Positions 271-32,000 of a stretch of DNA of 32,000 nt are shown piece by piece. This stretch comes from Promethearchaeum syntrophicum (GTDB taxonomy: Archaea; Asgardarchaeota; Lokiarchaeia; Sigyniarchaeales; Promethearchaeaceae). The stretch is taken from positions 3,720,001-3,752,000 of the forward strand of contig NZ_CP042905.2 of the NCBI RefSeq assembly GCF_008000775.2, given 5' to 3'. How positions within the stretch are numbered: the stretch's first letter is position 1; each line of letters opens with the position of its first letter. Under the pieces are notes generated by a model. That model worked only from the letters and a program-made list of their open reading frames with translations. It made no database searches and was not told where the DNA came from. The translations under genes and the position numbers were made by a program.

Positions 271-867
271 TTAATAATATAATTTAAGGATCTCATTTAG
301 CACAAATATTAACTCCTTACACACTTCTTCCATTTCCTTTGTTAAATTGAAGGAATAAAACGGAATATTTGGATTATTCTCTTTCATATCCAAATCCCAT
401 AAATCTTCTCGATATAATTGATAAGTCTCTAAAAATTTTAATGAGTAGGGACAAATTCCAACTAATTTTATATCAACACCAGAGACACCCCTTTGAATTC
501 GATCAATAAATACAGGTAAAGGTAAACTATGACTTGAAATGGGTAAATAATTGAGTATTTTATCTTCTTCGAAAATTCCGATAGTTCCGGAGGGTTTTTT
601 TAAATCAATAACATCAACTATTAACACTAATTCAGGTTGAAAATCGATTATTTCGGGGAGTCGCTCTTCGGGCGTAATACCACCATTGATAATACTTATT
701 TTAGTTTTATTTTTCCATTTTTGCCATAGTTCCCACGTGATATAAACTCCAGCTCCATCATCACCCATTCTATTCTCACCAATTCCTAAAATTAGTAGTT
801 TTGGAGATGATTTTAAGAGATTGGTTAAGGAAAGATTAAGATTTTTGTATTTTTCCTTTAAATCCAT
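271..867 (-). CDS. [NiFe]-hydrogenase maturation endopeptidase (HycI/HybD/FrhD family)
   Basis: It has LILGIGENRMGDDGAGV (the GIGNxxxGDDGxG-type motif), a later acidic LIVDVID segment and SSHSLP. These match the Glu/Asp-Asp-His metal ligands of this protease family. It sits between hypD and hypE. Confidence 0.8.
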   Translation of the reverse strand: MDLKEKYKNLNLSLTNLLKSSPKLLILGIGENRMGDDGAGVYITWELWQKWKNKTKISIINGGITPEERLPEIIDFQPELVLIVDVIDLKKPSGTIGIFEEDKILNYLPISSHSLPLPVFIDRIQRGVSGVDIKLVGICPYSLKFLETYQLYREDLWDLDMKENNPNIPFYSFNLTKEMEEVCKELIFVLNEILKLYY

Positions 868-925
868 AATAACATTATTTTAGTAAAATTGTTAAAATTT
901 CGGAATTTATTCTATAATTGGAATA

Positions 926-1957
926 ATGTCAGAGAAAAAAATAATTCAATTAGGTCATGGTGGGGGAGGGATTTTACAAGGAGAATTAATTAAATTTATT
1001 ACGGAAAATATCCCTATTAAGAAAATTGGCAAGGGAATTGGAGTTGATGCTTATGATGATGGAGCTACTGTACCTTTAGATAATTACGATTATGAAATTG
1101 TAGTTACTGCCGATGGACATACAATACATCCATTATTTTTTCCGGGGGGAGATTTGGGAAAATTATCAGTTTGCGGAACAGTGAACGATTTAATTATGAT
1201 GGGAGCAAAACCACTTGCTTTAACATCAGTAGTTCTGATAGAGGAAGGTACCGCATTCGATTTTCTGGGAAAAATTATGGATTCCTTTAACAAAACCGCT
1301 GGAGAGGGTGAAATTGCAATATTAGCGGGAGATACAAAGGTAATGCCTCGCGGATCGTTGAAAGAAATTATTATTACTACTTCCGGGATTGGAATTAAAT
1401 CAAAAAAATGTCAAATATTAGATTCTAATTGCAAACCAGGAGCAAAAATCATTCTTACGGGATCTATTGGAGATCATGGAGCCGCCCTTATTGCCAGAAG
1501 AGAAGGAATTGACTTAGAAACAGAATTAAAATCAGATGTGGCAATGTTGACACCCCTTTATACAGTAATAAAAGACCAACCAGGGATATTAGCAATGAAG
1601 GATCCAACTCGTGGTGGCTTAGCCGCAGCATTAAATGAGTGGGCAGAGAAATCTAATATTAGTATTTGGGTGGAAGAGTCACAATTATTAATCAAACGAG
1701 AAGTTAAAGCAATTTCAGAAATATTAGGATTAGATCCTCTAGAAATAGCAAATGAAGGGAAAGCGATAATCTGCGTTGAATCAGAATATGCTTCTCAACT
1801 GTTAGAAAAAATCAAAAAAACATCAATAGGAAAAGAAGCCCGAATAATTGCCGAGGTTAAAGAATCAAATCCAAAGTTAGTTATAATGAAAACTCCATTA
1901 GGAAGTAAAAGAATTATTGAAAAACCTATGGGAGAATTAATTCCTCGTATTTGTTAA
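926..1957 (+). CDS. hypE: HypE hydrogenase maturation protein (carbamoyl dehydratase)
   Basis: It has the PurM-like fold signature GHGGGG near the N-terminus and the diagnostic C-terminal PRIC. Confidence 0.95.
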   Translation: MSEKKIIQLGHGGGGILQGELIKFITENIPIKKIGKGIGVDAYDDGATVPLDNYDYEIVVTADGHTIHPLFFPGGDLGKLSVCGTVNDLIMMGAKPLALTSVVLIEEGTAFDFLGKIMDSFNKTAGEGEIAILAGDTKVMPRGSLKEIIITTSGIGIKSKKCQILDSNCKPGAKIILTGSIGDHGAALIARREGIDLETELKSDVAMLTPLYTVIKDQPGILAMKDPTRGGLAAALNEWAEKSNISIWVEESQLLIKREVKAISEILGLDPLEIANEGKAIICVESEYASQLLEKIKKTSIGKEARIIAEVKESNPKLVIMKTPLGSKRIIEKPMGELIPRIC

Positions 1958-1981
1958 AATTCTCATGTAATTTTACTCTTT

Positions 1982-4408
1982 GTGATTGAAATGAAGCAAC
2001 AGAAAATAATTATCACAGGAATTGTGCAAGGTGTTGGTTTTCGACCTTTTCTTTATAATTTTCTTCGTTCATATCATTTAAAGGGAAAGATTCAAAATAC
2101 GGGTAATTTGGGGGTTTCTCTCGAATTACAATCCTCTGATGATGATTTTAATTTTCAAAATTTGATTCAAGATCTAAAAAAGAAGGTTCCAAAAATGGCA
2201 TTTATCGAAGACATCCGATTATTGCCTTTTTCAAACATTCAACAGCAAGTAAAATTTGACCAACTTCAGATAATCCCAAGCAATGAAGGGATAGGAGCCG
2301 GGCTCACTTTACCTCCCGATATTGCAATGTGTGACAAATGTTTACATGATTTTAATAACAAATCCAATTCATCTTTTTTTCACTATCCATTTATCAGTTG
2401 CGCTCAATGTGGTCCCAGATTCACAATTATGGAGTCACTTCCTTACGATCGGGAATATAGCATGATGGACGAATTTCCATTTTGTGAAGATTGTAAAAAA
2501 ATCTTTTCTAATATAGATAATCGACGTTTTCATGCCCAAACTTTTGGATGTAATTCTTGTGGTCCTCATTATTTTGATGAAATAAGTCAAAGAGAACCTA
2601 GTCAGAAAGATCTTCCCAAAATTATAGAAAAAATGGTTGAAGCGATAAAAATCGGAAAAATTATTGCACTAAAAGGAATCGGAGGTGTCAATTTAGTTTG
2701 TAGAGCTGATAAAGAACAATCAATTCAAACACTCCGAAACAGAAAAAAGGAAAGAAAATTCAAACCTTTTGCAGTTATGATGCCTAATTTAGAGACAGCA
2801 AGGAAATACTGCGAAATCCCAAAAGAATTTGAAACCATATTGACTTCTTTTCGAAGACCGATCATTTTATTTAAAAAGAAAGAAGGAACTTTACCTGAAA
2901 ATCTTTCACCAGGATTACCCAATATAGGAATAATTCTTCCGTATATGGGATTACATTACTTATTGTTCGAAAAACTTGGAAAAATTCCTTTGGTATTTAC
3001 TAGTGGGAATGTTTCTTCACTACCAATGGCCATCGAAAACACAATGATAAAAAAACATATGGTAAATTTAGCAGATGAAATATATCTTCATAATCGCAAG
3101 ATTTACCAACGTTGCGATGATTCAGTAATCCGCCCTGTGTTAAATTCTCCAATTTTAATCCGCCGTTCAAGAGGATATGTCCCAGAATATTATAAACTTC
3201 CTTTTAAAACTAATACTAAAAGTATTATTGCAACAGGTGCAGAATTGAATAGTACCGGAGCCATAAGCAGAGGAGAAAGGATTTTTCCAACACAACATAT
3301 CGGAAATGTCCGAAATCTTGATACTTATGAATTTCTTGAAAACGCAATCCTTCATATGCAGCATCTTTTAAAAATTACTGATTCAGAAATTAATGCAATA
3401 GGAAGGGATATGCACCCATTATTTCAATCTTCAAGACTTGCTTCCAAATTATTAGAAAACCTCAATAAATCTAAAAATGGTAAAGGAAAGGAGATTTCTA
3501 TTTGGTCTGTTCAACATCATCATGCTCACCTTGCTTCTCTAATGGTTGACAATAAAATGCCCATGGATAGTGAAATGATTGCAATTACTATAGATGGGGT
3601 CGGTTATGGAAGTGATAAACAACCTTGGGGGGGAGAAATATTAAGAGGAGGATATTCATCTTTTGAACGACTGGGACATTTGGAACCAATTCCTATGGTG
3701 GGAGGAGATTTGTGTGCGAAATATCCACCTCGCATGTTATTATGTACTTTAATGAATTCGGTTGGATATAAAGAAAATCCAGAGATCATTGAAGAATTAA
3801 CCAGTAAATTAAATTTAGCTCAATATTTTCCACAAGGATTTCAAGAAATAAAGTACATAACCAATAAATTCAACCAACTTGATGAAATAACTCCTCAAAA
3901 ACATCCACGTACCTCAAGTTTTGGGAGGTATTTAGATGCCATCTCTTCTTTATTTGGTGTTTCACAATTGAGAACATACCGCGGAGAACCTGCAATGAGG
4001 CTTGAAGGGTTCATTTGGAATGGCACTCCGAAAACATATTTTAATTTAGATCAATATCTCCATGGAAATGTGATATTGAGTGATCAACTTCTTTGGGATT
4101 ATACTAATCTATTATTAACAGAACCAAAATTTAAAAAGAAGAAAGAACAAAAAGACCTTGCACGATCGCTAGTGACCGATACTAGTAAATTGTTTGCCCA
4201 AATTGCAATAAGAAATTCAGAAGAGGTAGGGATTAAAGATATTGGAGTCTCGGGTGGAGTAGCTTACAATGAAATTATTATGCAAGTAATAAAATCAGAA
4301 GTTGAGAAGAGGGGATTTAGGTTTTTACAGCATAAGAATATAGCACCAGGTGATGCGGGTGTTTCTATTGGACAAATTGCCAGTATTATTGCGAGATTAA
4401 AATTGTAA
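1982..4408 (+). CDS. hypF: HypF carbamoyltransferase
   Basis: It has an N-terminal acylphosphatase motif (GIVQGVGFRPF) and two zinc-finger pairs (CDKC..CAQCGPRF and CEDC..CNSCGPHY). YrdC-like and Kae1-like regions follow, with HHHAH and a C-terminal GDAGVSIGQ. GTG at 1982 or ATG at 1991 could be the start. Confidence 0.95.
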   Translation: MIEMKQQKIIITGIVQGVGFRPFLYNFLRSYHLKGKIQNTGNLGVSLELQSSDDDFNFQNLIQDLKKKVPKMAFIEDIRLLPFSNIQQQVKFDQLQIIPSNEGIGAGLTLPPDIAMCDKCLHDFNNKSNSSFFHYPFISCAQCGPRFTIMESLPYDREYSMMDEFPFCEDCKKIFSNIDNRRFHAQTFGCNSCGPHYFDEISQREPSQKDLPKIIEKMVEAIKIGKIIALKGIGGVNLVCRADKEQSIQTLRNRKKERKFKPFAVMMPNLETARKYCEIPKEFETILTSFRRPIILFKKKEGTLPENLSPGLPNIGIILPYMGLHYLLFEKLGKIPLVFTSGNVSSLPMAIENTMIKKHMVNLADEIYLHNRKIYQRCDDSVIRPVLNSPILIRRSRGYVPEYYKLPFKTNTKSIIATGAELNSTGAISRGERIFPTQHIGNVRNLDTYEFLENAILHMQHLLKITDSEINAIGRDMHPLFQSSRLASKLLENLNKSKNGKGKEISIWSVQHHHAHLASLMVDNKMPMDSEMIAITIDGVGYGSDKQPWGGEILRGGYSSFERLGHLEPIPMVGGDLCAKYPPRMLLCTLMNSVGYKENPEIIEELTSKLNLAQYFPQGFQEIKYITNKFNQLDEITPQKHPRTSSFGRYLDAISSLFGVSQLRTYRGEPAMRLEGFIWNGTPKTYFNLDQYLHGNVILSDQLLWDYTNLLLTEPKFKKKKEQKDLARSLVTDTSKLFAQIAIRNSEEVGIKDIGVSGGVAYNEIIMQVIKSEVEKRGFRFLQHKNIAPGDAGVSIGQIASIIARLKL

Positions 4409-9366: not shown

Positions 9367-10200
9367 TTATTCAAATTTTAAACCGCAATATTCGCAATAT
9401 TCATGGTTAGAAGAACTTTCCTCACCACATCTTGGACAATATCTCTTATCCGAGGGAGTATTATTAATTCTTCTTTCCACTACTACTTCTTCTCTAATAT
9501 CTTGTGAAAAAGCAGGATTAGAATTTACGTTGATATTCAAATTTTGGCGTTCGCGTCGTTCATGATATCTCGTTCTTAGATTTTCTTGGTGTCGAGTTAT
9601 GCTATCGATGATTACAAATGAAACAAGCATAATCGGTACACAAGGCCACCAAAACCAATTAGGACGACCATTACTAAAAATATCTACAAATATTAAGAAG
9701 AAACAAACTACCGCAGGATACCATAATGCATGTAATCTAGCTACGGGTTGACCTAATTCAATTTTTTTGATTCTCATATAAGCAACAAAATGTTCTCCAA
9801 CACCTATACCCATTGCAGCAACTGGCCATGCAAACCATGGATAGCCCATTCCTGTAATTACATTTAGGAGGAAAAGAAACATACTTACGGTTAATATGAC
9901 CGCAAAATGAATATAAAAACCACGATCTGATTTATAGGGATATCGATGAATAATAAAAATTACGGAACTATGAATTGATATCCCGATACCCCACGATATT
10001 AGCGGATATAAGAACCAGAAATTACCACCACTAACTCCTGTTAAAAAATTTAGTACCATTAAAAAGCAATTTACTGCAATATAAGTTATCCAATGTGCCC
10101 TTAAACCTGTTCTTGCACCTACTCGATTAAAATTGGGATTATTCCCATGAAATCTGGAATAATTCGAATTATTTTCCGAATTTCTTTGATTGTCCACCAT
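9367..10200 (-). CDS. membrane protein with three 2TM-type hairpin repeats and a C-terminal zinc ribbon
   Basis: A hydrophobic-hairpin pattern with WF..P...WGIG..H-like spacing occurs three times. The C-terminus is CPRCG...CEYCG. Confidence 0.6.
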   Translation of the reverse strand: MVDNQRNSENNSNYSRFHGNNPNFNRVGARTGLRAHWITYIAVNCFLMVLNFLTGVSGGNFWFLYPLISWGIGISIHSSVIFIIHRYPYKSDRGFYIHFAVILTVSMFLFLLNVITGMGYPWFAWPVAAMGIGVGEHFVAYMRIKKIELGQPVARLHALWYPAVVCFFLIFVDIFSNGRPNWFWWPCVPIMLVSFVIIDSITRHQENLRTRYHERRERQNLNINVNSNPAFSQDIREEVVVERRINNTPSDKRYCPRCGEESSSNHEYCEYCGLKFE

Positions 10201-10402
10201 TTATTTCAACTCAATTTTAGCTATATGATGTTAACATATAGCATCTGTTTTAATTTATTATGAGACCAATCTTTAGCAAGAAGGTATTTTTATATTGTGA
10301 AAATATTTAAGAATCGTGTCTCCCACGATATTCACTAATCTTAACAGTATTTTAAAAGTTAATTGGATGCAATTTAAAATTAAGAATAAAATAAAAAAAA
10401 AA

Positions 10403-10481
10403 GAACAATCCCCGGGCAGGGGTCTCCCATATCTCCATAGTTTTCAAGATATGATCATTGAATTCATCCTTTCACGAATGA
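10403..10481 (-). promoter_or_regulatory. 3' UTR of the selenopeptide gene with candidate SECIS-type stem-loops, ending in a T10 termination tract
   Basis: On the minus-strand RNA, UCAUAUCU/AGAUAUGG forms an 8-bp hairpin (+10427..10454). It is followed by GAGA-CCCC-UGCCC-GGGG-A (+10409..10426), then U10 (+10393..10402). This is the only GC-rich structured patch between the stop codon and the T tract. Confidence 0.3.
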
Positions 10482-10640
10482 TTATCCGCAGTCAACTTCC
10501 AACTTGCGAATGACTCGCTCAGTACCGTCTGGCTCAACAATGGTAATGTGAGCTGCACACGAGAGTCAGCAGTCATAACAGCGAATAACCATTTCCAATA
10601 GGTTCAAAATGTTATCATTTACTTCTACTACCATTTTCAT
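10482..10640 (-). CDS. vhuU: VhuU-like selenopeptide: the separately encoded C-terminal segment of the [NiFeSe]-hydrogenase large subunit, with an in-frame TGA read as Sec
   Basis: I translated it manually as MKMVVEVNDNILNLLEMVIRCYDC-TGA-LSCAAHITIVEPDGTERVIRKLEVDCG-TAA. The TGA is at 10566..10568. U-x-x-C-x-x-H sits exactly where the DPCxxCxxH motif is missing from the upstream large subunit. A GGAG lies 6 nt before the ATG, and the gene starts 10 nt after the large-subunit stop. Confidence 0.75.
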
Positions 10641-10650
10641 TTCATCTCCA

Positions 10651-11988
10651 TTATTTCACCATAGGGTCAGGTAATTTTACTTTATCTAAAATTCCTTGTT
10701 CAAATATTTGCTGGGCTGCGTGTTTCACGCTTTTTTCAATACCCGCAATATTGTGGTTTGTTGCAACTAAAAGATTCAGCTTTCGGCAAATACCTTCTGC
10801 ATCCGTGGTCATATCATATATAAGATTTCCTCTAGGAGCATCAACCATTCCGACACCGCGCCCTGCTATAGGTTTGATATCAAGAGTTTTGATATCCGTG
10901 CTTATAATTTCGGGATCTTTTAAGTACTTGATAATTAATTCAAAAGCAGCAACGGTTTCAATGATTCGAGCCCAATGATAAGCAAATGTATGATGAAAAA
11001 CTCCATTATCTTTTCCAAGAATCTTTTGAAACATTTCTTTTCGAGCAGCTTCAGCCAACGGAGTTTCCATTTCATCGCAAGCGTTTATCATTGCCAGTGA
11101 ATTAGTTCGATATATTCCATCTGGATAACCTACTGGACGGTAATAGGTGTGTGTTGCATAAGAATGATTAGGAATATGCTCACCAATTGCTTCCAAGTAA
11201 TCTGCAGGTTTGTAAACCGTTTTCTTACCTTCAGGTGAAACGAATACAATATCCCCATCATAGATTTCATGAACGAGTTTTCCATTGACTTGTTTGGCTA
11301 CACCACAGTAATATGTTGGGGTAACTGCAAGGTTAGCAACAACATCCCAATAATCAAACACGACTTTTTTAGCTAAATCGACTGTAGCTTTTACGTATTC
11401 TAATTGTTCAGGTATTTGAGCAATAAAGGAATCTCGCATTTCTGATGTTAAAGGATTTCGCATTCCCCCAACAATTCCAGCAATTGAACCAACGGATTTT
11501 CCACCAATGAAAGCGCTAATATTCTGCCCAAAATCCATCATTTTCAAAGCCATTGCTCCGACATCGGGTAAATCTTTGATAATTTGAACTACATTTCTCT
11601 TTGCAGGATCTGCAAAAGGACCATAAACAAAATCGGGTGCAGCTAATGCAAAGAAATGCAATAAATGCGAGCTATACTGTTTTGCATTCATGAATAGCTG
11701 ACGCAATTTATAAGCTGCAGTAGGAATTTCTACATTCCATGCAGCTTCTACCGATTTTGTGGCTGCAATGTGATGAGGAACAGGACAAATACCACAAATT
11801 CGATTAGTTATTCTTGGAACATGTTCAGCATATCGGCCAATACAAAGTTTCTCAAAGAAACGGGTTGACGTTATGTTAAATTGCACATCTTTTACAGTTT
11901 TACCATCTTCTGCTAAAACTAGTCTTAAACCACCGTGACCTTCTAAACGGGTTACGGGTTCAACTTCATATACTTTATCTGGAGACAT
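10651..11988 (-). CDS. vhuA: [NiFe(Se)]-hydrogenase large subunit, group-3 Mvh/Vhu type, lacking its C-terminal metal-binding segment
   Basis: It has N-terminal PVTRLEGHG and the RICGICPVPH (RxCGxCxxxH) Ni-Fe ligand motif. The ORF ends ...KLPDPMVK with no DPCxxCxxH. Confidence 0.9.
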   Translation of the reverse strand: MSPDKVYEVEPVTRLEGHGGLRLVLAEDGKTVKDVQFNITSTRFFEKLCIGRYAEHVPRITNRICGICPVPHHIAATKSVEAAWNVEIPTAAYKLRQLFMNAKQYSSHLLHFFALAAPDFVYGPFADPAKRNVVQIIKDLPDVGAMALKMMDFGQNISAFIGGKSVGSIAGIVGGMRNPLTSEMRDSFIAQIPEQLEYVKATVDLAKKVVFDYWDVVANLAVTPTYYCGVAKQVNGKLVHEIYDGDIVFVSPEGKKTVYKPADYLEAIGEHIPNHSYATHTYYRPVGYPDGIYRTNSLAMINACDEMETPLAEAARKEMFQKILGKDNGVFHHTFAYHWARIIETVAAFELIIKYLKDPEIISTDIKTLDIKPIAGRGVGMVDAPRGNLIYDMTTDAEGICRKLNLLVATNHNIAGIEKSVKHAAQQIFEQGILDKVKLPDPMVK

Positions 11989-11989
11989 T

Positions 11990-12880
11990 TTAGAGATTCA
12001 CCTTCGCTAACGCTTCTTTTCCTTTGTTTCTATGGAATTTTATTCCAAGAGTAGCAGGATCTTTACCCATGGCTAAAGCAATCAATTCCGTAATGTAAAA
12101 TGTTGGAAACTTATATACTTCACCTTCTTCAGCCATAGCTTTTAATTTCGGTTGTTCGCTATCGAATTGTTGAAAACATGAAGGGCAGTTTGCAACTAAG
12201 CAATCAGCACCAGCGCGTTTTGCACCATCAATTTTCGATTTCAACATTGTATTTGCAGTGTAAGGATCGGTATTTCTAACTACATTTCCACAACACAGGT
12301 TTTCTTCTTCATATTTGACAGCAGTAGCACCCGTAGCTTCAACCAGCTTTCTTAAATATTGAAGATTCATTACATCTTCTTCTACTTTCAAGATATGCGA
12401 TGGTCGAGCATAGTGGCATCCCGGATGCAGAGCAACTTTTAATCCTGTTAATGGATGTTTTACACTTGCTTTGATCCTTTCGATGCCTACTTCTTCATAT
12501 AACACTTTGACGAAATGAACTACGTTCGTGGTTCCCTTATATTCTTTACCCACTTTTTTGAGGATTTCGTTTACCTCATTCTTTAAATTAGGATCGTGTT
12601 TCATTTGATGGTCAGCAATAATCAAGGATTGAGCACAACCATTGCATAATGACATTATGTTCTTGTTTTCATTTTCAGCTACAACTAAATTTCTGGCAGC
12701 CAAAGTACACCACGTCTTATTATCTACAAATTTTAGACCAACTGGATTAGGACAACACGCAAATTCGGCAGAGCTATAACCAACACCAAGTTCATCAAAA
12801 ACAACTTTTGCTGATGCTTCAAGGAATGGTAATCGATTTGTCATTAAACATCCAGGAAACAATTTATATTCGGTTGTCAT
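11990..12880 (-). CDS. hdrB: heterodisulfide-reductase subunit B-like protein (two CCG domains)
   Basis: It has two Cys-rich CCG-type modules: ACCPNP...CNGC and LCCGN...CPSC. Its start overlaps the HdrC stop by 1 nt. Confidence 0.85.
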   Translation of the reverse strand: MTTEYKLFPGCLMTNRLPFLEASAKVVFDELGVGYSSAEFACCPNPVGLKFVDNKTWCTLAARNLVVAENENKNIMSLCNGCAQSLIIADHQMKHDPNLKNEVNEILKKVGKEYKGTTNVVHFVKVLYEEVGIERIKASVKHPLTGLKVALHPGCHYARPSHILKVEEDVMNLQYLRKLVEATGATAVKYEEENLCCGNVVRNTDPYTANTMLKSKIDGAKRAGADCLVANCPSCFQQFDSEQPKLKAMAEEGEVYKFPTFYITELIALAMGKDPATLGIKFHRNKGKEALAKVNL

Positions 12881-13407
12881 TATGCAGTCCCCTCCTCTTC
12901 TTTCTTTCCGAGTACTTTATTTATCCCAGTTGCTTCCATTATAATTTTGACTTCATCGACCGGAATTTTAGGTGGTAAACCAATACCCAATTTTTCACGA
13001 CGTTTATTAATTGCATCTTGAACTGGAATAGCCATTCCGTTGTCTCTAATAGTTCGAGCGGATTCCGGATAAAATTCGGGTGTTGCACCTGCAGCTACTG
13101 CAGCGTTCTTCAGATAACAAATAATATCTGTAATAGGTATTTCACTTGGACAGTACTCGTCGCATGTTTCACAAGCAGTACATCCCCACAAAGCAAATGG
13201 ATCACGTCCTACCGCTGCAAATAAGGCATCTTTGTATCCCAAAGCAGAGAATAAAACAAGATCTCGTGGATTGTATCGTGATCCCCATCGGTGGTGAACT
13301 GGGCATACCTCATTGCATTTGCCACATTGGAAACAGTAAGAGATTTTTTCTCCACCGATCATAAGGTCAAGAACATCTCTTTTCACATGTAAATCTATAT
13401 TAACCAT
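12880..13407 (-). CDS. hdrC: heterodisulfide-reductase subunit C-like 2x[4Fe-4S] ferredoxin
   Basis: The cluster motifs are CFQCGKCNEVCP and CTACETCDEYCP. There is 1 nt between the small-subunit stop and its ATG. Confidence 0.8.
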   Translation of the reverse strand: MVNIDLHVKRDVLDLMIGGEKISYCFQCGKCNEVCPVHHRWGSRYNPRDLVLFSALGYKDALFAAVGRDPFALWGCTACETCDEYCPSEIPITDIICYLKNAAVAAGATPEFYPESARTIRDNGMAIPVQDAINKRREKLGIGLPPKIPVDEVKIIMEATGINKVLGKKEEEGTA

Positions 13408-13408
13408 A

Positions 13409-14770
13409 TTAATTCTCCTCCACTTTTCTTCCTAAAGAACTTGTAGGAACACAAAACCGGGCAAATAACCCAGCAGGATCGCTGAAGAATTTTTTAATAT
13501 TCTCAGGATCATCTCTACAAATTGATGGGAAAAGACTCATCGCTTTAGATGGGAAGTCATCAACATTCAAAGCGGGACCATAACACCCTAAACATGGACT
13601 ATTTGCATTACAACATGTAGCTCCGCAACCAGCTTTTGTTATGGGTCCCATACATACGTAGCCTTGAACTAATAAACATTTTTCTTGATCTGGAAAACCT
13701 TCATAATCACGTATGTAACGAATTACTTCTTTGTCAACAACATTCCTTTCACATTGTGAGCATACAGTTTGTGCAGAATCATCATAATCGGGATTATCCT
13801 TAAGATTTCCCATAGCCGCTCCTACAATATTATTCAATATCTCAGGATATCCTTCAACAGTAAAATCAACAATTTCTTTTTCATTTACCAGTTTTGTTCT
13901 TAAATTATCTGGATCTAGTTTAACAGCGCGAATTGGATCGGCTTTTCCTACTAAATATCCCAATGGAACCGTGTTCAATGTCATGAGGAGTGTTTCCACA
14001 GTTTGTTGAACTTCCTTTCGAGATAATGGTTGTGCAGTTATTTTCTTAAACAATTTTTCCGCGTTTATGTTATGAACTTTTTTAGTTAATCCAAATTCCC
14101 CTAATACCGGATATCCCGACTCTATTCTTCCAAGTGGCACTGCAGAGGCAGTTATAGGTCCATAACATAATCTATCTTGATCAAGTAAACAAGTTTCCAA
14201 TGGACATACATCGCACATGGATTTCTCAGCATTGACTACTGTCTTTACTTGACCCAGTACAGTCGCAATTAAGCCAATAATATTACCTGTTTTTGGTGGA
14301 CACCCTGGTAAATCAACATCAATTTTTGTAACGGTGTGAAGATCCGGAATAAAATCCAAAAATTTTGAAACGTGTTGATCGGGAACAGTAGAACCCGGAT
14401 CTACAAATTCAGGGTCGGTAAACTTCCTTTCAGTAAGTTCTTCGATTGAAAATAAGTTTGCAAGTCCAGGACACCCTCCTAAAACAGCACAAGCCCCTAT
14501 CGCTACAATAACTTTGCATTTTCTCCGCATTAAATGAACATGTTCAAGATCGGCTTCAGTTCGACAAAAACCTTCAAGAAAACCAACATCTACACTATTA
14601 TCCTCGTAATTTTCCAAGTGTTTCAATTTAAAATCGACAACAGCAGGCCAATAAACGATTTCAATTTCCGGTATTACATGCAAGAGCGTTAAATGAGCAT
14701 CTAAAAGAGACTGGTGGCAACCCCAACACGAAGCTAATTGCATAAAAGCTACTTTTGCCATATTTTTCAA
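13409..14770 (-). CDS. [NiFe]-hydrogenase small subunit, group-3 (MvhG/VhuG-like), extended (453 aa)
   Basis: The proximal-cluster motifs are ASCWGC, GACAVLGGCPG and LPGCPP. The medial and distal motifs are CDVCPLETC...C and CMGPITKAGCGATCCNANSPCLGCYGP. A Cys-free segment of roughly 130 aa lies between them. Confidence 0.85.
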   Translation of the reverse strand: MKNMAKVAFMQLASCWGCHQSLLDAHLTLLHVIPEIEIVYWPAVVDFKLKHLENYEDNSVDVGFLEGFCRTEADLEHVHLMRRKCKVIVAIGACAVLGGCPGLANLFSIEELTERKFTDPEFVDPGSTVPDQHVSKFLDFIPDLHTVTKIDVDLPGCPPKTGNIIGLIATVLGQVKTVVNAEKSMCDVCPLETCLLDQDRLCYGPITASAVPLGRIESGYPVLGEFGLTKKVHNINAEKLFKKITAQPLSRKEVQQTVETLLMTLNTVPLGYLVGKADPIRAVKLDPDNLRTKLVNEKEIVDFTVEGYPEILNNIVGAAMGNLKDNPDYDDSAQTVCSQCERNVVDKEVIRYIRDYEGFPDQEKCLLVQGYVCMGPITKAGCGATCCNANSPCLGCYGPALNVDDFPSKAMSLFPSICRDDPENIKKFFSDPAGLFARFCVPTSSLGRKVEEN

Positions 14771-14964
14771 CTCTATTTTTAATTAATAAGATAAACCTAA
14801 ATATTAAATTAATTCGGAATTTTAGATTTTATCGTATTTATTAGTATGTAGTTTAAAGCTTTTAAGTTTTTAAAATTTACAAAATCATCATTTCTAGCGA
14901 TAATTTTGAATTCTATTTCGATTTTCATCGTTATTTAATGATTTAATGTTCGATATTCTTTATA

Positions 14965-15007
14965 ATATTACTAGTTTAGAAATTAGTAATATGAATCATG
15001 ATTCATA
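14965..15007. promoter_or_regulatory. candidate operator: 18-bp perfect palindrome TATGAATCATGATTCATA plus an overlapping 9-bp inverted repeat
   Basis: The palindrome at 14990..15007 is exactly self-complementary. ATATTACTA (14965..14973) and TAGTAATAT (14984..14992) are inverted copies. The site lies in the 396-bp gap between dsrH and the hydrogenase operon. Confidence 0.3.
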
Positions 15008-15166
15008 ATCTCCGAAAGCCTACAGTTTTTCCAATTCAATTTATATATATTTTAAAATGATTCAAAAACTCTAAATTAAATCCAATTCTGAATGATAATG
15101 GGTTATTGATTCATTTAAGGGAGTTTATAAAAGAATAAGATATAAAAAAAAATATGAATTGGAAAT

Positions 15167-15466
15167 TTAAAAATTTAATATTGAATCATTTTCAAAAATC
15201 AAATCTACTACTTCATCTGTTGTAACTAATTTAATTTTATCAGAAATGAATTTTACTAATCCCCTTTTCATAATATCCTCTTTACATGCAATAACTATCT
15301 TATTTTGATTAATTGCTTGTGAAACGGTATTATTGAATTTATTTGCAAAATACACTGCATTTTGAAGTAGAAGAATTGTTACTTCGTCTTCAATAGAATG
15401 TTCCATCGCAGTTTCTACTCCAGTGATATCTTGACTGGAAATAAAATATAACACTTTTTTTGCCAT
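15167..15466 (-). CDS. DsrH/TusB-family sulfur-relay protein
   Basis: It is 99 aa with an ILLLQNAVYFA segment typical of DsrH/TusB. It is the third of three consecutive small DsrE-fold genes. Confidence 0.7.
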   Translation of the reverse strand: MAKKVLYFISSQDITGVETAMEHSIEDEVTILLLQNAVYFANKFNNTVSQAINQNKIVIACKEDIMKRGLVKFISDKIKLVTTDEVVDLIFENDSILNF

Positions 15467-15479
15467 TTTTTCATGCCTC

Positions 15480-15824
15480 CTAAAATGGGATGGTTACGGA
15501 TGATTCCGCAATCATTTTTACTATATCACAATGATCTACAATTTTCACATGATCAACTAAATCCTCTTTGACTAATCCCCTCTCATCAATGGATTTCTTA
15601 TCAACAAAGATATCTAAATCAATACTTTTCAAGAAATTCATATGTACTAAATACATAGTTTTATCTACATCCTTAGTAAAGGTGTATACTGCATCATTAA
15701 TGGCAATGGTAATCGGATCAAAATCGGCACTAACTGCTACTGCCATTCGTAACCCCTCAACAGGATAAAGTGTTCCGTGTGGGGGTTGTCGCAAAAGAAT
15801 AACTACATTTTTTTCTTCAGTCAT
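15480..15824 (-). CDS. DsrF/TusC-family sulfur-relay protein
   Basis: It is 114 aa with a PPHGTLYPVEGLRMAVAV segment typical of DsrF/TusC. It lies between the DsrE-like and DsrH-like genes. Confidence 0.7.
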   Translation of the reverse strand: MTEEKNVVILLRQPPHGTLYPVEGLRMAVAVSADFDPITIAINDAVYTFTKDVDKTMYLVHMNFLKSIDLDIFVDKKSIDERGLVKEDLVDHVKIVDHCDIVKMIAESSVTIPF

Positions 15825-15835
15825 TTTTCATCACC

Positions 15836-16198
15836 TTAACAGATTACAATAAGTCTATCAGTTTCGTCAATAATTCTAGCAAGATCAGGTGTTCCAGCTT
15901 TTTTAATATCTCCGCTTTCCTTTGTGATACAATTTTTCATTGTACCTCTTACTAAAAGACAAATATTACAGAGTCTGATTGTCGCCCCTTTACTTAATAT
16001 TTCTTTAAAACCTTCTTCAATATTCATAATACCTTCTATTTTTTTTTGTTTTTCTAAGACCGCATTCACTGCATCCATATAACAAAAAATGCGGACACTG
16101 TGTCCTTTATCTAGTGCAGCGTTTGCGATTTTGCATACAGATTCACTAGCCTGTTTTTGATAAGGTCCATCAAAGAAAAGGATTCCTAATTTGGGCAT
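15836..16198 (-). CDS. DsrE/TusD-family sulfurtransferase
   Basis: It is 120 aa with an N-terminal GILFFDGPY. A conserved Cys context, LCNICLLVRG, sits near the position of the TusD/DsrE active-site Cys. Confidence 0.75.
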   Translation of the reverse strand: MPKLGILFFDGPYQKQASESVCKIANAALDKGHSVRIFCYMDAVNAVLEKQKKIEGIMNIEEGFKEILSKGATIRLCNICLLVRGTMKNCITKESGDIKKAGTPDLARIIDETDRLIVIC

Positions 16199-16224: not shown

Positions 16225-17265
16225 TTAATCGTCTTTTTCTCTGAATAGTAAAAATGCCAAAAACCAACACCCTAATACTATTCCAACTGATGAAACTATA
16301 CTACCAACAGATAACTGAGGGATCCCGCTTAAAAGATTTCCAACATTACAACCTGAGGCAACAACTGCTCCAAAACCCATTATAAATCCACCTAAAAATT
16401 GTAACAATATTGTTTTACCTTCCTTTGGAGTTCTAAGCTTAAATTCACCAGCAATCAATGAAGCAATCAATGCACCAACAATAACGCCCAATACTAACCA
16501 TGAAATCCAGGATAATGCAGCTACATCTCCAGTAACTAAATATTTTAAGTTTCCTATCCAACCCGCAGTAATTCCTAAAGGATAATTTCTACCGGCTGCA
16601 GCAGATAAAGGCCATGCAATAATATTTATAATACCAATTAAATAGCCAGTTGAATACCAAGACCATCCTTTCTTGAATATATTTTCTCCTAAATTACTGA
16701 AATCAAAGAATTTCTCTCTCTTTGCTTTAATTTCTTTAAATACCCAGAAGTAGAAAGTTACTACAAGACCAATTACACCAATAATTAAACAGAATAATGG
16801 TGTTAAATCTCCAAAAACAGTGATTCCACCAGTAGATACTGATTGTAAAGCTGTAGTGACTCCTGAAAGAGCACCAGATTTTGTGGTAAACGCCCCAATT
16901 GCTAACCCAACTAAGGCTACCAATGATCCCATCATACCTTCTCCAACTCGATAGGTCGTTCCACTAGCACATCCTGCAGCAAGAACCATTCCTAATCCAA
17001 AAACAAATCCGCCGATAATAGACCCATATGCGAATAATGGTTTTGGATTCCAGGTAACCCATCCTGCAAGACCCATAATTCCAAATCCGGCCATGCATGT
17101 TAATAATGCAAGAGCTACAGATTTTATTAGTTTATATTCCTTTAATAAGATAATATCTCTAAAAGCGGAGTTCATACAAAATCGACCGCGTTGTAGGATT
17201 ATACCAAATAACATCCCAATCAAAAGTCCTGATATTAAGACTGCATAAAATTCTGCCATTTTCAT
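16225..17265 (-). CDS. YeeE/YedE-family sulfur (thiosulfate) or selenium transporter
   Basis: It is a polytopic membrane protein with two GRFCMNS/ASGC-type half-repeats (RGRFCMNSAF, AAGCASG, ASGCNVG). I chose the ATG at 17265, preceded by AAGGAG, over the track start at 17301, which overlaps tusA. Confidence 0.8.
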   Translation of the reverse strand: MKMAEFYAVLISGLLIGMLFGIILQRGRFCMNSAFRDIILLKEYKLIKSVALALLTCMAGFGIMGLAGWVTWNPKPLFAYGSIIGGFVFGLGMVLAAGCASGTTYRVGEGMMGSLVALVGLAIGAFTTKSGALSGVTTALQSVSTGGITVFGDLTPLFCLIIGVIGLVVTFYFWVFKEIKAKREKFFDFSNLGENIFKKGWSWYSTGYLIGIINIIAWPLSAAAGRNYPLGITAGWIGNLKYLVTGDVAALSWISWLVLGVIVGALIASLIAGEFKLRTPKEGKTILLQFLGGFIMGFGAVVASGCNVGNLLSGIPQLSVGSIVSSVGIVLGCWFLAFLLFREKDD

Positions 17266-17273
17266 TTTGCTCC

Positions 17274-17507
17274 TTATTTTATACGGACCAAGATTTGCCA
17301 TGAAGATTTATCTTTTTTCTCTACTGAGATTACTTCATGTCCGAGTTTTTTCATTGTTTCAGGAATTCTTTCAGCTGAAAGCGGATAATCAATTAAAATT
17401 TCTAAAATATTTCCTGAATTCATCTTCTTAACTTTCCTTTTAGATTTTACATCGGGATATGGACATACTTCACCCATGCAATCCAGTGTTTCTGTAATTT
17501 CTACCAT
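17274..17507 (-). CDS. tusA: TusA-family sulfur carrier
   Basis: It is 77 aa with DCMGEVCPYP, which matches the D.xG..CP.P active-site motif. Confidence 0.85.
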   Translation of the reverse strand: MVEITETLDCMGEVCPYPDVKSKRKVKKMNSGNILEILIDYPLSAERIPETMKKLGHEVISVEKKDKSSWQILVRIK

Positions 17508-25362: not shown

Positions 25363-27345
25363 TTAGAAGAAATTCAATTCATAGTCAGCCATGCCTACGG
25401 TAGCACTGACAATCAATAATATATTTTCATCTCCAAAGGAAGTAAGATCCCAAGTACCTTCATTTAGATCGTTCAAATCCAGATCTTGTAAAATTGAACC
25501 ATCTTCAGTTGTCAAAGTCACCATGAAATCAGCCTCCGGGATTATTGAATAAAATGCTTCCATATTCAAAGGTATATCATTGACCTTAACATTTTCTACC
25601 CACCATCCTGCTTCTTCGGTTGCCCAATCAGTCATATAACGGAATTGAAGGATAACTTCTTGATCAATAAATGCACCTAAATCGAAAGTCATAGTTCCAT
25701 CAAAAGAACCACATAATCCAGGTAAATTATCGATGATTGCGGGATAAGCGGCAGGATCGTATTCATCATTTGTATACTCATTTTCTAGAGATGTCCATGT
25801 ATTACCATCATCATTAGAGATTTGCACAAACCCAAAGTCCCAAAGGTCCTCAATTTCATATTCTGTATCAAAGGTAAGTTTTGGTTCTGTGATGCCGGTT
25901 AAATCTAGATCATAAAGAATTCGTAAATCCATCTCTGGAGCCGCGGGGGTAGAATACAAGGTGTTTCCATCGTTTTCCCAATGGGGAACAGTTGCCAAAT
26001 CATCTCCATTGAAAGACAAAGTTTTGTAATTTAACCCATTCAAGGCGATATAATCGGTTGAATAATCTCCTAATAGATAAACATCTGTTTCATAACCCAA
26101 AATTGACACAGTTTGTCCGAAATCACTACCTTTATATGGAAAAGCTGTAGTTGCATCAAGGTTATAAACTCTTGCGGAGTCAAAATCGGCGAGATCCATA
26201 TATAAATAATTATAATCCCCGGAATGAATAAGGTTCGCAATTCTCCAATTGTGGAAGGCATCCTCGAAGCGATCTTCAGATCCGATAGATTCTAAAACCG
26301 CATTAATACCGGGAATTCCACCAATTCCTGATTGAACAAAATCTCTGATAAATGTTTCTCCATATGTATCACCTAAATAAATCGCCCATAACAAAGCTGA
26401 TCCGTAATCTGCTAAGATATTAGTTCCTCCTTGATCTTCCCAATCGACTAATGAATTGTCAGGAGTAGCCATATAACTATTAATATCTCCCTCAGCAAGA
26501 GGATACCCACATAGTGGTTCAGCATACATAGAACACCCTTCGTTCATAAAAATATCATCGTAGGTGTTCAAATCATCATGGATTAGATGTTGGTATTCAT
26601 GTGCAATAACTCCTTCATAGAGGTTTGGCCGTTTAGCATCATCTCCAACTCGATTCACCCAATCATAACAATCAATCGAGATAATATTTCTGTCAAAGTA
26701 ATTTTCTAGAGAAGGTGAATAAAACCCTGCGTAATAATAGGGATAATCATGGTCATAGTAGTTGGTATCTCGGATATTAGAGACTAAAATAACCGATTTT
26801 CCAGATTCTTCAAAATATTCCCCAGTGGTAGACAAGATTGCCTTTGATCCGTTATGGAAATCTTCATTTCCAAAATAGCCAGTATCTATTGGATAAATAT
26901 TATTTTCAAATTCGTCTAAAAGGTAATCAACTTGCCAATCTTCTACTATTGGTGTGTCGCGATGATCTCCTTTTTTACCATCAAAATCGAGTTCGAGCTG
27001 CACCCAAATTTCGCTCATATTTCCACTCGCACGAAGAATATAGTAGGACCATACATACCCTGCGGCAGCATTTTCATCTAAAACTAACCAATATTTAATT
27101 GCACCCACTTCTGGATAAGTAGGGTAGCCAGAAATGTCGAGGGCTATCCCCTCTTTCTCCATATATTTTTCCGCATATTTTAATGGACCATCATTTCTTA
27201 ACTTCCAACCAATATCAATTGGCGTAGGGTCAACGTAATCTTGTGCAGTAACTGAGATTATTGAGGTAAGCCCACTAATAACAAAAACTGATAAAATAAA
27301 TACAGATATAGTTGTTTTTTTTTTCATTTTAATCACATAATTCAT
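25363..27345 (-). CDS. secreted zinc metalloprotease (HExxH)
   Basis: It has an N-terminal signal/anchor (KKKTTISVFILSVFVISGLTSIISVTA). It also has HEYQHLIH with a downstream NEG. A beta-rich C-terminal region (DFGFVQISNDDGNTWTSL) follows. Confidence 0.75.
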   Translation of the reverse strand: MNYVIKMKKKTTISVFILSVFVISGLTSIISVTAQDYVDPTPIDIGWKLRNDGPLKYAEKYMEKEGIALDISGYPTYPEVGAIKYWLVLDENAAAGYVWSYYILRASGNMSEIWVQLELDFDGKKGDHRDTPIVEDWQVDYLLDEFENNIYPIDTGYFGNEDFHNGSKAILSTTGEYFEESGKSVILVSNIRDTNYYDHDYPYYYAGFYSPSLENYFDRNIISIDCYDWVNRVGDDAKRPNLYEGVIAHEYQHLIHDDLNTYDDIFMNEGCSMYAEPLCGYPLAEGDINSYMATPDNSLVDWEDQGGTNILADYGSALLWAIYLGDTYGETFIRDFVQSGIGGIPGINAVLESIGSEDRFEDAFHNWRIANLIHSGDYNYLYMDLADFDSARVYNLDATTAFPYKGSDFGQTVSILGYETDVYLLGDYSTDYIALNGLNYKTLSFNGDDLATVPHWENDGNTLYSTPAAPEMDLRILYDLDLTGITEPKLTFDTEYEIEDLWDFGFVQISNDDGNTWTSLENEYTNDEYDPAAYPAIIDNLPGLCGSFDGTMTFDLGAFIDQEVILQFRYMTDWATEEAGWWVENVKVNDIPLNMEAFYSIIPEADFMVTLTTEDGSILQDLDLNDLNEGTWDLTSFGDENILLIVSATVGMADYELNFF

Positions 27346-31700: not shown

Positions 31701-32000
31701 TTAAAGGTGCATCCCAAGTTAATTCTACCTGTTCATCTCCTGGAATTGCTTGAAGATTTTGAGGGGCACTTGGAACACCCAATGGAGTAGCACTCACTTC
31801 ATCACATAATGGCCCTTCTCCTTCAGTATTATTAGCAGAAATTTGATAATAATAAATTTGTCCATTGGTTAAACCAGTATCAGTATAGGTCAAAACATCT
31901 CCAATTGAGGTGAATAATGATAAACTCCCAGAACTGGTCCCTCTATAAATATTATAGCCCGTAATAGCAGAGTCACCAGCACTTAAAGGTGCATCCCAAG
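28705..32000 (-). CDS. giant membrane-anchored surface protein with at least 9 FN3-like modules, a central jelly-roll-like domain and a C-terminal TM anchor (N-terminus outside the window)
   Basis: The frame stays open to base 32000; the track start at 31893 is an internal TTG inside a repeat. The repeated unit is P.NLQA.PGD.QVELTW..P...G..I.GYNIYRGTSSG.L........LTYTD.GLTNGQIYYYQISA.N.EGEG. The tail is IIAGSSVAIGSSIALLLVIRSRKRRL. Confidence 0.9.
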   Translation of the reverse strand, partial: WDAPLSAGDSAITGYNIYRGTSSGSLSLFTSIGDVLTYTDTGLTNGQIYYYQISANNTEGEGPLCDEVSATPLGVPSAPQNLQAIPGDEQVELTWDAPLSAGDSAITGYNIYRGTSSGSLSLFTSIGDVLSYTDTGLTNGQIYYYQISAKNTEGEGPLCDEVSTTPLGAPTVPQNLQAIPGDEQVELTWGAPLSDGGSVITGYNIYRGTSSGSLSLFTSIGDVLSYTDTGLTNGQIYYYQISANNTEGEGPLCDEVSATPLGVPSAPQNLQAIPGDEQVELTWDAPLSVGDSAITGYNIYRGTSSGSLSLFTSIGDVLTYTDTGLTNGQIYYYQISANNTEGEGPLCDEVSTTPLGAPTVPQNLQAIPGDEQVELTWGTPLSDGGSVITGYNIYRGTSSGSLSLFTSIGNVLTYTDTGLTNGQIYYYQISANNTEGEGPLCDEVSVTLIYEQLDEGVDNYELSFSTGGDSDWFSQTTTTYYGGDAVESGDIVDSQSTWIETTVNGAGSLQFWYGISSEQYYDYLRLYIDGVLSGLSVSGTVPFTEFTQDISEGEHTIRWTYSKDGSVSSGSDCAWIDYIRWIPDSPFPSAPQNLQTFPGDAQIELTWGAPLSDGGSAITGYNIYRGTSSGSLSFFTSVGDVLTYTDLGLTNGQIYYYQISAINAEGEGSLCDEVSASPLGAPTVPQNLQAIPDDAQVDLTWDAPFSDGGSVITGYNIYRGTSSGSLSLFTSVGDVLTYTDLGLTNEQIYYYQISAINAEGEGPLCDEVSAFPSVFPSTPLNLQAIPDDAQVELTWSAPLSDGGSAISGYNIYRGTSSGSLSLFTSVGDVLTYTDLGLTNEQIYYYQISAINAEGEGPLCDEVSALPSVFPSTPLNLQAIPGDAQVELTWGAPLSDGASVITGYNIYRGTSSGNLSLFASVGDVLTYTDTGLNDGQTYYYQISANNTEGEGPLCDEVSVTTFPDTNRAPNNPINPSPENEEIIEALGANLSVYVSDPDGDQLTVTFYNAITGDIIGIQENVESNTTVLVEWVGLVDGETYEWYVVVDDGYLNRTSETWTFTVEIPADNMTIYIIAGSSVAIGSSIALLLVIRSRKRRL
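29112..30240 (-). repeat. tandem 282-bp coding repeats, 4 copies (membrane-proximal FN3 block)
   Basis: The anchor string CACTCACTTCATCAC recurs at 29127, 29409, 29691 and 29973, exactly 282 bp apart. Copies 2 and 3 are identical over about 190 bp and then diverge. Confidence 0.9.
30656..32000 (-). repeat. tandem 282-bp coding repeats, at least 4.7 copies, alternating A/B subtypes (564-bp super-repeat), running off the window
   Basis: The anchor string recurs at 30663, 30945, 31227, 31509 and 31791, 282 bp apart. Units alternate between SAPQNLQ..WDAPLS.GDSAITGYN and TVPQNLQ..WG.PLSDGGSVITGYN. Confidence 0.9.

Follow-up and report, generated by a model that had tools for sequence, protein, structure and literature searches.

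Where do the electrons of a [NiFe] hydrogenase go when its operon encodes the heterodisulfide reductase (Hdr) subunits HdrC and HdrB but neither HdrA nor MvhD? The question is raised by an operon at positions 10482 to 14770 of a 32,000-nucleotide stretch of DNA, hereafter the window (positions 3,720,001 to 3,752,000 of contig NZ_CP042905.2, forward strand), from strain MK-D1 of Promethearchaeum (Prometheoarchaeum) syntrophicum, the first cultured Asgard archaeon. Few relatives of the eukaryotes' archaeal ancestor have been cultured, Lokiarchaeum ossiferum and MK-D1 among them, and hydrogen- and sulfur-based syntrophy models of eukaryote origin depend on whether Asgard hydrogenases make or consume H2. 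The operon's genes are the sole [NiFe] hydrogenase of MK-D1 and have been interpreted as a confurcating MvhADG-HdrABC complex that releases H2 (Imachi et al. 2020). We find that a Vhu-type [NiFeSe] hydrogenase coupled to an HdrCB pair of its own is a conserved feature Asgard-wide, and we tentatively propose, at a little short of an even chance, that this enzyme is an Asgard-specific form of group 3c (Vhu/Mvh-type) hydrogenases that carries its own disulfide-reductase module in the operon and offers a direct, flavin-free route from H2 to a disulfide or persulfide.

Operon and selenopeptide

Five co-directional open reading frames (ORFs) on the minus strand fill 14770..10482 and encode, in this order, the small subunit (G), HdrC, HdrB, the large subunit (A) and a selenopeptide (U). 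The first of them (13409..14770) specifies a long VhuG/MvhG-like small subunit with a Pfam Oxidored_q6 domain that scores 217 bits against NCBIfam VhuG (equivalog cut-off 450) and is 100% identical to the NCBI protein DSAG12_03954 of MK-D1. The HdrC-like two-[4Fe-4S] subunit of 175 amino acids (aa; 12880..13407) matches methanogen HdrC (8rvv_C) with 85 bits and has both CxxCxxCxxxCP [4Fe-4S] motifs, as CFQCGKCNEVCP and CTACETCDEYCP. Similarly, the HdrB-like catalytic subunit (11990..12880, 296 aa, two Pfam CCG domains) aligns over its full length with methanogen HdrB (8rvu_b / 5odc_B, 218 bits) and has all cysteines of both CCG motifs (ten, for two non-cubane [4Fe-4S] clusters). Scores against the equivalogs for CoM-S-S-CoB are 272 bits for HdrB (TIGR03288, cut-off 345) and 83 bits for HdrC (TIGR03290, cut-off 160). 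The large subunit (10651..11988, 445 aa) finds its top PDB sequence match in VhuA of M. maripaludis (9sfi_g, 393 bits) and reaches 441 bits against NCBIfam VhuA, again below the equivalog cut-off (800). Its N-terminal Ni-binding motif RxCGxCxxxH is present as RICGICPVPH, and the ORF terminates without the C-terminal Ni-binding motif DPCxxCxxH.

This second Ni motif is found as a selenocysteine (Sec) variant (D-C-U-L-S-C-A-A-H) on the separate VhuU-like peptide of 52 codons (10482..10640; NCBIfam VhuU 53.9 bits, equivalog cut-off 70), which reads ..YDC-U-LSCAAH.. across an in-frame TGA at 10568..10566. All 29 complete loci with the peptide, the window and 28 others from the survey described below, have an in-frame TGA at the identical position. 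The selenopeptide is real and completes the Ni site of the truncated large subunit, and it is decoded through a hairpin resembling a selenocysteine insertion sequence (SECIS) in the 3' untranslated region (UTR; 10423..10459, minus strand), for which folding predicts AAUGAU, an 8-bp stem, an AAAC-containing loop and then GGAGA. In an 8-locus alignment, compensatory changes affect four of the eight base pairs of this stem, and neither the 5' GAUG nor the AAAC of the loop varies. Rfam searches of the whole window at gathering thresholds and of 10300-10700 at permissive thresholds returned no SECIS or other family, with chance-level matches only. The hairpin looks eukaryote-like (AUGA...GA) and is also seen in the vhuU 3' UTRs of loci L002-L009. 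A second helix, a GC hairpin (CCCCUGCCCGGGG) followed by a T-run (10392..10422, minus strand; recognized from sequence and fold), is conserved with compensatory changes as well and is likely the end of the operon transcript.

The five genes are tightly packed. The junctions read TAA-T-ATG from small subunit to HdrC (1 nucleotide, nt), TAATG from HdrC to HdrB (1-nt overlap), TAA-A-ATG from HdrB to large subunit (1 nt) and TAA-TGGAGATGAA-ATG from large subunit to selenopeptide (10 nt), and a Shine-Dalgarno-like GGAGG or GGTGA lies at the end of each upstream gene. Direct reading and family matches confirm the gene order and junctions given by a first-pass annotation of this DNA, which had been made from the sequence alone. 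Four of these genes are listed under “NiFe Hydrogenase” in the published gene table of MK-D1 (MvhA 03951, HdrB 03952, HdrC 03953 and MvhG 03954; Imachi et al. 2020, Suppl. Table 4), and the same four are similarly expressed, with 296-371 reads per kilobase per million reads (RPKM). Neither Pfam nor NCBIfam reveals a membrane protein in the operon, and the small subunit, which begins M(KNM)AKVAFMQL, has no twin-arginine (Tat-type) leader. The first-pass annotation had also seen no HdrA or MvhD in the window, and rightly so: none was detected in Pfam scans of all ORFs of at least 90 aa, and tblastn with Asgard HdrA and MvhD queries across all 32 kb found nothing. The idea that these proteins might be hidden as Sec-interrupted ORFs was rejected, as tblastn reads through stops and gave no match.

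Gene orders across Asgard archaea

Scanning one genome per GTDB species with a profile of the long small subunit yielded 80 loci that we compared together with the window; essentially all are Asgard, with one binned as Bathyarchaeota. Their architectures were established by ORF calling, BLASTP and tblastn with queries from the window and with Asgard HdrA, MvhD and Fwd. The order singled out by the first-pass annotation, G-HdrC-HdrB-A-U (type 1), occurs in 12 loci (the window, L002-L009 including Lokiarchaeum ossiferum and Harpocratesius, L017, L036 and L065). About 11 loci are arranged G-A-HdrC-HdrB-U (type 2a; L014, L019, L021-L023, L027, L028, L030, L033, L034 and L037), so that two hdr genes part the Ni-site-completing U from A, and 5-6 are arranged G-A-U-HdrC-HdrB (type 2b). 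Across these three gene orders, hdrC-hdrB is part of the hydrogenase operon in all of the roughly 30 loci with a large subunit, and mvhD and hdrA are absent from every one of these operons. Type 2 loci have a different, also conserved 3' hairpin (AUAUCCAAU-AAAAA-AGAUUGGAUAU).

In about 12 further loci (type 3), G'-(HdrC)-HdrB stands with no large subunit within 10 kb, and in about 16 (type 4), a long-G paralogue lies either downstream of hdrC-hdrB-hdrA-mvhD-polyferredoxin or in divergent orientation to it, often with hypE/hypF as neighbours. The apparent lack of a large subunit in some loci is a true absence within ±10 kb as judged by tblastn. Six of the type 3 loci (L024, L038, L041, L042, L045 and L069; around positions 10000-12400 of each) have hdrB directly after G' and no hdrC; their G' is full-length with all 20 conserved cysteines, and neither a large subunit nor vhuU is found within 10 kb. 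This arrangement suggests that G can serve HdrB directly. Type 3 loci are syntenic with type 2a loci, beside mvhD-ferredoxin-polyferredoxin-fwdDBC-fdhD, suggesting that A, U and HdrC were lost.

One way to account for the operon is that hydrogenase and HdrCB are co-regulated without forming one complex, with their order being a neutral rearrangement and a soluble carrier (ferredoxin or a thiol protein) shuttling electrons between them. The three permutations of hdrCB relative to A and U, among which hdrCB can even part U from A, indeed imply that gene order as such is not constrained, and some relatives keep G with HdrB or HdrCB and no large subunit within 10 kb. However, such loose coordination sits poorly with a spacing of at most 1 nt with embedded Shine-Dalgarno-like motifs at three junctions, and with a linkage of G to HdrC/HdrB that is kept in nearly every architecture among small subunits that are only 35-45% identical. 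It also does not account for the co-diversification of HdrCB with G and A as a separate clade: in neighbor-joining trees, the HdrB and HdrC linked to G or to the hydrogenase form one clade apart from the HdrB and HdrC linked to HdrA. We consider mere co-regulation improbable.

Some surroundings recur among these loci. A block of mvhD, an 85-aa ferredoxin gene, polyferredoxin, fwdD, fwdB, a fwdC-like gene and fdhD lies 1-9 kb upstream of G(-A)-hdrCB in L016, L019-L022, L024, L037, L038, L041, L042, L044, L045, L047 and L048, with no hdrA nearby, and recalls the methanogen Hdr-Vhu-Fwd super-assembly minus the flavoprotein. Paralogous long-G genes divergent from or last in hdrC-hdrB-hdrA-mvhD-polyferredoxin are found in L055-L064, L072, L073 and L077 and also in L043, L050 and L052; they often precede hypE, a hypD-like gene and hypF and have no large subunit within 10 kb. 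In two loci (L036:3755-5602 and L032:1403 onward), the gene immediately upstream of that for the small subunit encodes a protein of 615-629 aa with N-terminal TPR repeats and a double-CCG HdrB-like domain.

Long small subunit and sulfur cassette

Read from the TTG at 14770, the small subunit has the 453 aa that the first-pass annotation gave it, but it probably starts at the ATG at 14761 and then has 450 aa, as in NCBI DSAG12_03954. It is unusually long compared to VhuG/MvhG of 288-308 aa, and its PDB sequence matches to these proteins are split into two blocks (residues 3-191 and 336-450) around an insert of about 145 aa (residues ~191 to ~336). The insert, taken with the cysteines at its start (residues ~186-336; 13763..14215, minus strand), consists of four extra cysteines followed by a cysteine-free helical/beta domain. 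Calling the whole insert free of cysteines, as had been done at first, holds only for residues 203-336: it opens with C186xxC189-x4-C194-x7-C202, a motif whose conservation in 117 homologues is 95-100%. It is a duplicate of C337xxC340...C365-x7-C373, part of the C-terminal two-cluster domain. The 12 core cysteines for three [4Fe-4S] clusters, the number found in the aligned MvhG/VhuG blocks, are conserved together with the four extra ones, giving 16 conserved cysteines in the MK-D1-type clade. About 70% of the homologues have the complete duplicate (8 extra cysteines and 20 conserved cysteines in all), and the internal repeat of these full-duplicate proteins scores 107-112 versus 33±7 for shuffles (z ~10). 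The clade of MK-D1, Lokiarchaeum and Harpocratesius keeps the first four extra cysteines alone. Judged from these alignments, the insert cysteines of MK-D1 are the apparent remnant of a decayed internal duplication of the two-cluster domain, and the extra conserved Fe-S-type cysteines of the small subunit could extend the electron wire.

A model of the whole small subunit built with AlphaFold2 (AF2) has a predicted local distance difference test score (pLDDT) of 87.3, and its top Foldseek match is 5odc_E (TMt 0.88), in line with an MvhG fold of the core. Modelled alone, the insert reaches a pLDDT of 81 with a predicted template modelling score (pTM) of 0.78 and finds no fold match in the PDB by Foldseek (best E 2.7), and phmmer with the insert against 1.8 billion representatives returned four matches, all from its own family. 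The insert is hence modelled as a confidently folded, family-specific domain and not as an MvhD-like module. Two candidate origins were rejected on these results: a built-in adaptor with an MvhD-like or HdrA-like fold, given the best Foldseek E of 2.7, and a domain borrowed from another known protein family, given that phmmer matches are confined to its own.

Upstream of the hydrogenase operon on the same strand lies a sulfur cassette composed of genes for a TusA-family sulfurtransferase (17274..17507, 77 aa, CPYP motif; Pfam TusA 75.9 bits), a YeeE/TsuA-type thiosulfate or sulfur transporter (16225..17301, 358 aa; Pfam Sulf_transp 274 bits, NCBIfam TsuA 292 bits with a cut-off of 400), DsrE (16198..15836; Pfam DsrE, sub-threshold NCBIfam TusD), a DsrF-like protein (15824..15480; Pfam DsrE, sub-threshold NCBIfam TusC) and DsrH (15466..15167; Pfam DsrH, sub-threshold NCBIfam TusB). 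The start of yeeE lies within the tusA ORF, with an overlap of 28 nt. Between dsrH and the operon is an AT-rich gap (14771..15166, 396 nt, 20% GC; 405 nt with the small-subunit start at 14761) that had been described as non-coding with stops in all frames, and this is borne out: each of the six frames has 8-20 stops, the longest open stretch is 41 codons, and the gap has no ORF of at least 40 aa. With a T-run after the dsrH stop and a TTTAATAT-like box ~40 nt upstream of the small-subunit ATG, the gap is probably a terminator plus promoter region.

Does the cassette feed the hydrogenase? An alternative that concerns the substrate only, and that can be combined with any account of the electron route, is that HdrB reduces a low-molecular-weight heterodisulfide and that the cassette is a separately transcribed operon for sulfur assimilation or tRNA thiolation. 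The AT-rich gap with its T-run after dsrH parts the two units, Pfam scans of the window turned up no DsrC/TusE-like acceptor, and most of the hydrogenase loci, those of L. ossiferum and Harpocratesius among them, have no cassette upstream of G. Yet TusA-YeeE-DsrEFH is found at the same position, directly upstream of G, in the window and L003 (both type 1) as well as in L067 and L076 (both type 2b), that is, in two gene-order types; it is also present in inverted orientation nearby in L005, and TusA orthologues lie upstream of YeeE in L005 and L076. Between the window and L067 or L076, DsrE is 78-80% identical, compared to only ~40% for G. L066, L068 and L070 are close relatives of L067 with matching synteny save for the cassette, which is an insertion in L067, and the cassette is never found beside the ~50 long-G loci without a large subunit. 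In the window and again in L003, L067 and L076, TusA and DsrE-family carriers are thus encoded beside a CCG-domain protein. We take a substrate unrelated to the cassette as a serious possibility that nevertheless falls somewhat short of an even chance.

The other genes of the window include hydrogenase maturation genes for a HycI-like endopeptidase (867..271, minus strand; Pfam HycI), HypE (926..1957, plus strand; Pfam AIRS/AIRS_C) and HypF (1982..4408, plus strand; Pfam HypF domains). These maturation genes (271-4408) lie 6-10 kb from the structural operon, with genes for an alpha/beta hydrolase, a HAD hydrolase, an ArsR regulator and a P-type ATPase in between. Just downstream of the operon (9367-10200, minus strand) is the gene of a protein of 277 aa that combines two 2TM domains with a zinc ribbon at its C-terminus and that was not seen beside the operon in other loci. 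Two further minus-strand genes probably encode unrelated surface proteins, one of 1062 aa with about eight fibronectin type III repeats (28705-31893) and one of 660 aa with an InhA-like MAM domain (25363-27345).

Electron route and known relatives

On the flavin-free route, H2 would be split at the NiFeSe site, and electrons would run along the Fe-S clusters of G (the usual three and at least one extra at C186/C189/C194/C202) to the two [4Fe-4S] clusters of HdrC and on to HdrB, whose two CCG (non-cubane) clusters would reduce a disulfide or persulfide. Such a path would need neither the [2Fe-2S] cluster of MvhD nor the flavin of HdrA, so that no bifurcation would take place. A carrier protein would present the substrate, either sulfane sulfur or a mixed disulfide. 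This would be fed by the TusA-YeeE(TsuA)-DsrE-DsrF-DsrH cassette with sulfur coming, for example, from imported thiosulfate, and the product would be sulfide. A direct electron link through G from the NiFeSe site to HdrC and HdrB is plausible, and the likely substrate is sulfane sulfur bound to a carrier, or a disulfide, delivered by the TusA-DsrEFH relay. H2 uptake seems the more likely direction, though the reaction would be close to thermodynamically reversible at the very low H2 pressures of syntrophy. A study later than that of Imachi et al. (2020) pointed out that characterized group 3c enzymes are H2 oxidizers and that MK-D1 also has an [FeFe] hydrogenase as a possible H2 maker. The boldest version, a self-contained flavin-free H2:protein-persulfide (or disulfide) oxidoreductase in which the duplicated Fe-S domain of G replaces MvhD and HdrA as the wire to HdrCB, is possible, but we hold it at well under an even chance.

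Several points weigh against a flavin-free route. MK-D1 has several HdrA and MvhD genes outside the window (01145-01150, 02804-02808, 03218-03223 and 03717-03726, with the individual HdrA/MvhD entries DSAG12_01147/48, 02804/05, 03220 and 03720-24; Imachi et al. 2020, Suppl. Table 4), and the search of the genome for such copies that had been proposed from the first is answered by this published table. Clusters of the hdrCBA-mvhD type lie within 10 kb in two of the 12 type 1 loci, upstream of the hydrogenase operon in L006 and directly downstream of the selenopeptide gene in L065, where hdrC-hdrB-hdrA-mvhD-polyferredoxin (L065:14428-18520) starts ~130 nt after vhuU on the same strand. L065 is the only surveyed locus in which the hydrogenase-HdrCB operon and an HdrA module are contiguous. 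Four type 2a loci have mvhD without HdrA ~7 kb upstream, beside polyferredoxin and fwd genes. In methanogens, hdrA is often unlinked from hdrBC even though their Mvh-Hdr complex is tight. In one subgroup of long-G proteins, which is Helarchaeota-like, hardly any of the extra cysteines are left, which implies that the extra clusters are not universally required. Direct transfer from H2 to a disulfide wastes energy, and MK-D1 is known to produce H2 and not to consume it (Imachi et al. 2020). Regarding the substrate, the cassette adjoins only five of the ~30 hydrogenase loci, is separated here by the 396-nt gap, and could serve general sulfur trafficking.

Many of these points would fit a canonical bifurcating or confurcating Mvh-Hdr complex in which G, A, U and HdrCB assemble with MvhD and HdrA encoded elsewhere, H2 is coupled to ferredoxin and heterodisulfide, and the sole peculiarity is the gene order. 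The published interpretation for MK-D1 takes this form, with the HdrA and MvhD copies listed elsewhere (Imachi et al. 2020), and it matches the likeness of large subunit, HdrB and HdrC to methanogen Vhu/Mvh-Hdr subunits, the clusters of L065 and L006 and the suitability of confurcation for an H2-producing fermenter. The paralogous long-G genes in or beside hdrCBA-mvhD-polyferredoxin clusters further indicate that long-G proteins can partner HdrA-containing modules. Against it stand the absence of mvhD from all of the ~30 hydrogenase operons and the finding that every HdrA in the surveyed loci is accompanied by its own HdrCB of a different clade, including the only two hydrogenase loci with HdrA within 10 kb (L006 and L065). 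It would moreover leave the extra Fe-S motif and the novel domain of G without a role, and the window has no ferredoxin-interacting module. We judge a canonical complex possible but distinctly short of an even chance. The first-pass annotation had suggested a direct, non-bifurcating oxidoreductase, and its notion of a dedicated hydrogenase-HdrCB unit without HdrA and MvhD in cis is strengthened by the ~30 loci, the distinct HdrCB clade and the extra cysteines of G; that the unit does not bifurcate is a more tentative proposal: MK-D1 has several hdrA and mvhD genes outside the window, and two of the 12 loci of the same gene order have an hdrCBA-mvhD cluster no more than 10 kb away.

If the boldest version is true, MK-D1's only [NiFe] hydrogenase, like its highly abundant counterpart in L. 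ossiferum, would consume H2 or be reversible at very low H2 pressure. They would make sulfide and not be the confurcating H2 producers of current syntrophy models, and the [FeFe] enzyme would be left to make H2. What we add are the dedicated HdrCB, a small subunit of a five- or four-cluster type, the lack of MvhD and HdrA in cis and the repeated adjacency of TusA-TsuA-DsrEFH, which together give a testable alternative in the form of H2-driven reduction of carrier-bound sulfur. The same findings single out concrete targets in the four extra cysteines, in the novel domain of the insert and in what the complex is made of.

Among known systems, the MvhAGD-HdrABC and VhuAGDU-HdrABC complexes of methanogens (PDB 5ODC, 9SFI and 8RVU) comprise the closest sequence relatives of A, the G core, HdrB and HdrC (393, 175, 218 and 85 bits, respectively). 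The small-subunit core shares the MvhG fold (TMt 0.88), and the large subunit is split as in Methanococcus into VhuA and the Sec-containing VhuU. Unlike in these systems, the Asgard hdrCB genes lie within the hydrogenase operon and neither mvhD nor hdrA is encoded in cis. The small subunit exceeds theirs by ~150 aa and contains a duplication of an Fe-S motif as well as a novel domain, and the operon's proteins score below all NCBIfam equivalog cut-offs. Methanogen mvhD usually sits in the mvh/vhu operon. As the host is not a methanogen, CoM-S-S-CoB is an unlikely substrate. Going by sequence, we classify the enzyme as a divergent relative of group 3c Vhu/Mvh-Hdr in which no MvhD is encoded in cis.

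The Isp-type hydrogenases of bacterial group 1e and crenarchaeal group 1g (hynS-isp1-isp2-hynL) likewise have hdr-like genes with the small-subunit gene on one side and the large-subunit gene on the other and are linked to sulfur reduction. Isp2 is HdrD-like. These group 1 enzymes are membrane-associated, periplasmic or extracellular, and have a cytochrome b (Isp1). The Asgard enzyme is instead of a cytosolic group 3c type; its HdrC and HdrB are separate proteins, it has no subunit in the membrane, and its small subunit carries no Tat-type leader. Hdr-like systems of sulfur trafficking (sHdr with TusA/DsrE, and DsrK/DsrC) resemble the window in having a CCG-domain catalytic subunit beside TusA/DsrE-family carriers. 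sHdr oxidizes sulfur and DsrMK draws electrons from quinol or membrane complexes, and we know of no sHdr- or DsrK-type system with a hydrogenase as built-in electron donor. Unlike these systems, the window has no HdrA, no lipoate-binding protein LbpA and no DsrC: neither an HdrA-like flavoprotein nor LbpA was found in it.

The first-pass annotation did not recall this architecture being described, which is correct only in part. Four of the genes were already tabulated as the NiFe hydrogenase of MK-D1, though as MvhADG-HdrABC, and hdr-like genes between small- and large-subunit genes are a hallmark of the Isp-type enzymes. In the non-subscription literature searched, we found neither the G-HdrC-HdrB-A order nor an HdrA-less Asgard hydrogenase described explicitly, and no account of a small subunit of this length, of the duplication of its cluster domain or, as such, of the operon without HdrA and MvhD. 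A further precedent is a 2025 preprint on another cultured Asgard archaeon, Nerearchaeum marumarumayae (bioRxiv 10.1101/2025.07.22.663070). Its accessible portions say nothing about how the operon is built, about a long small subunit or about missing HdrA and MvhD. They do propose, as a hypothesis within a metabolic map, that H2 oxidation by a group 3c hydrogenase is coupled to the Hdr-dependent reduction of persulfides bound to TusA or DsrE, with import through TsuA, and this amounts to an independent proposal of the same link between Asgard hydrogenases and sulfur.

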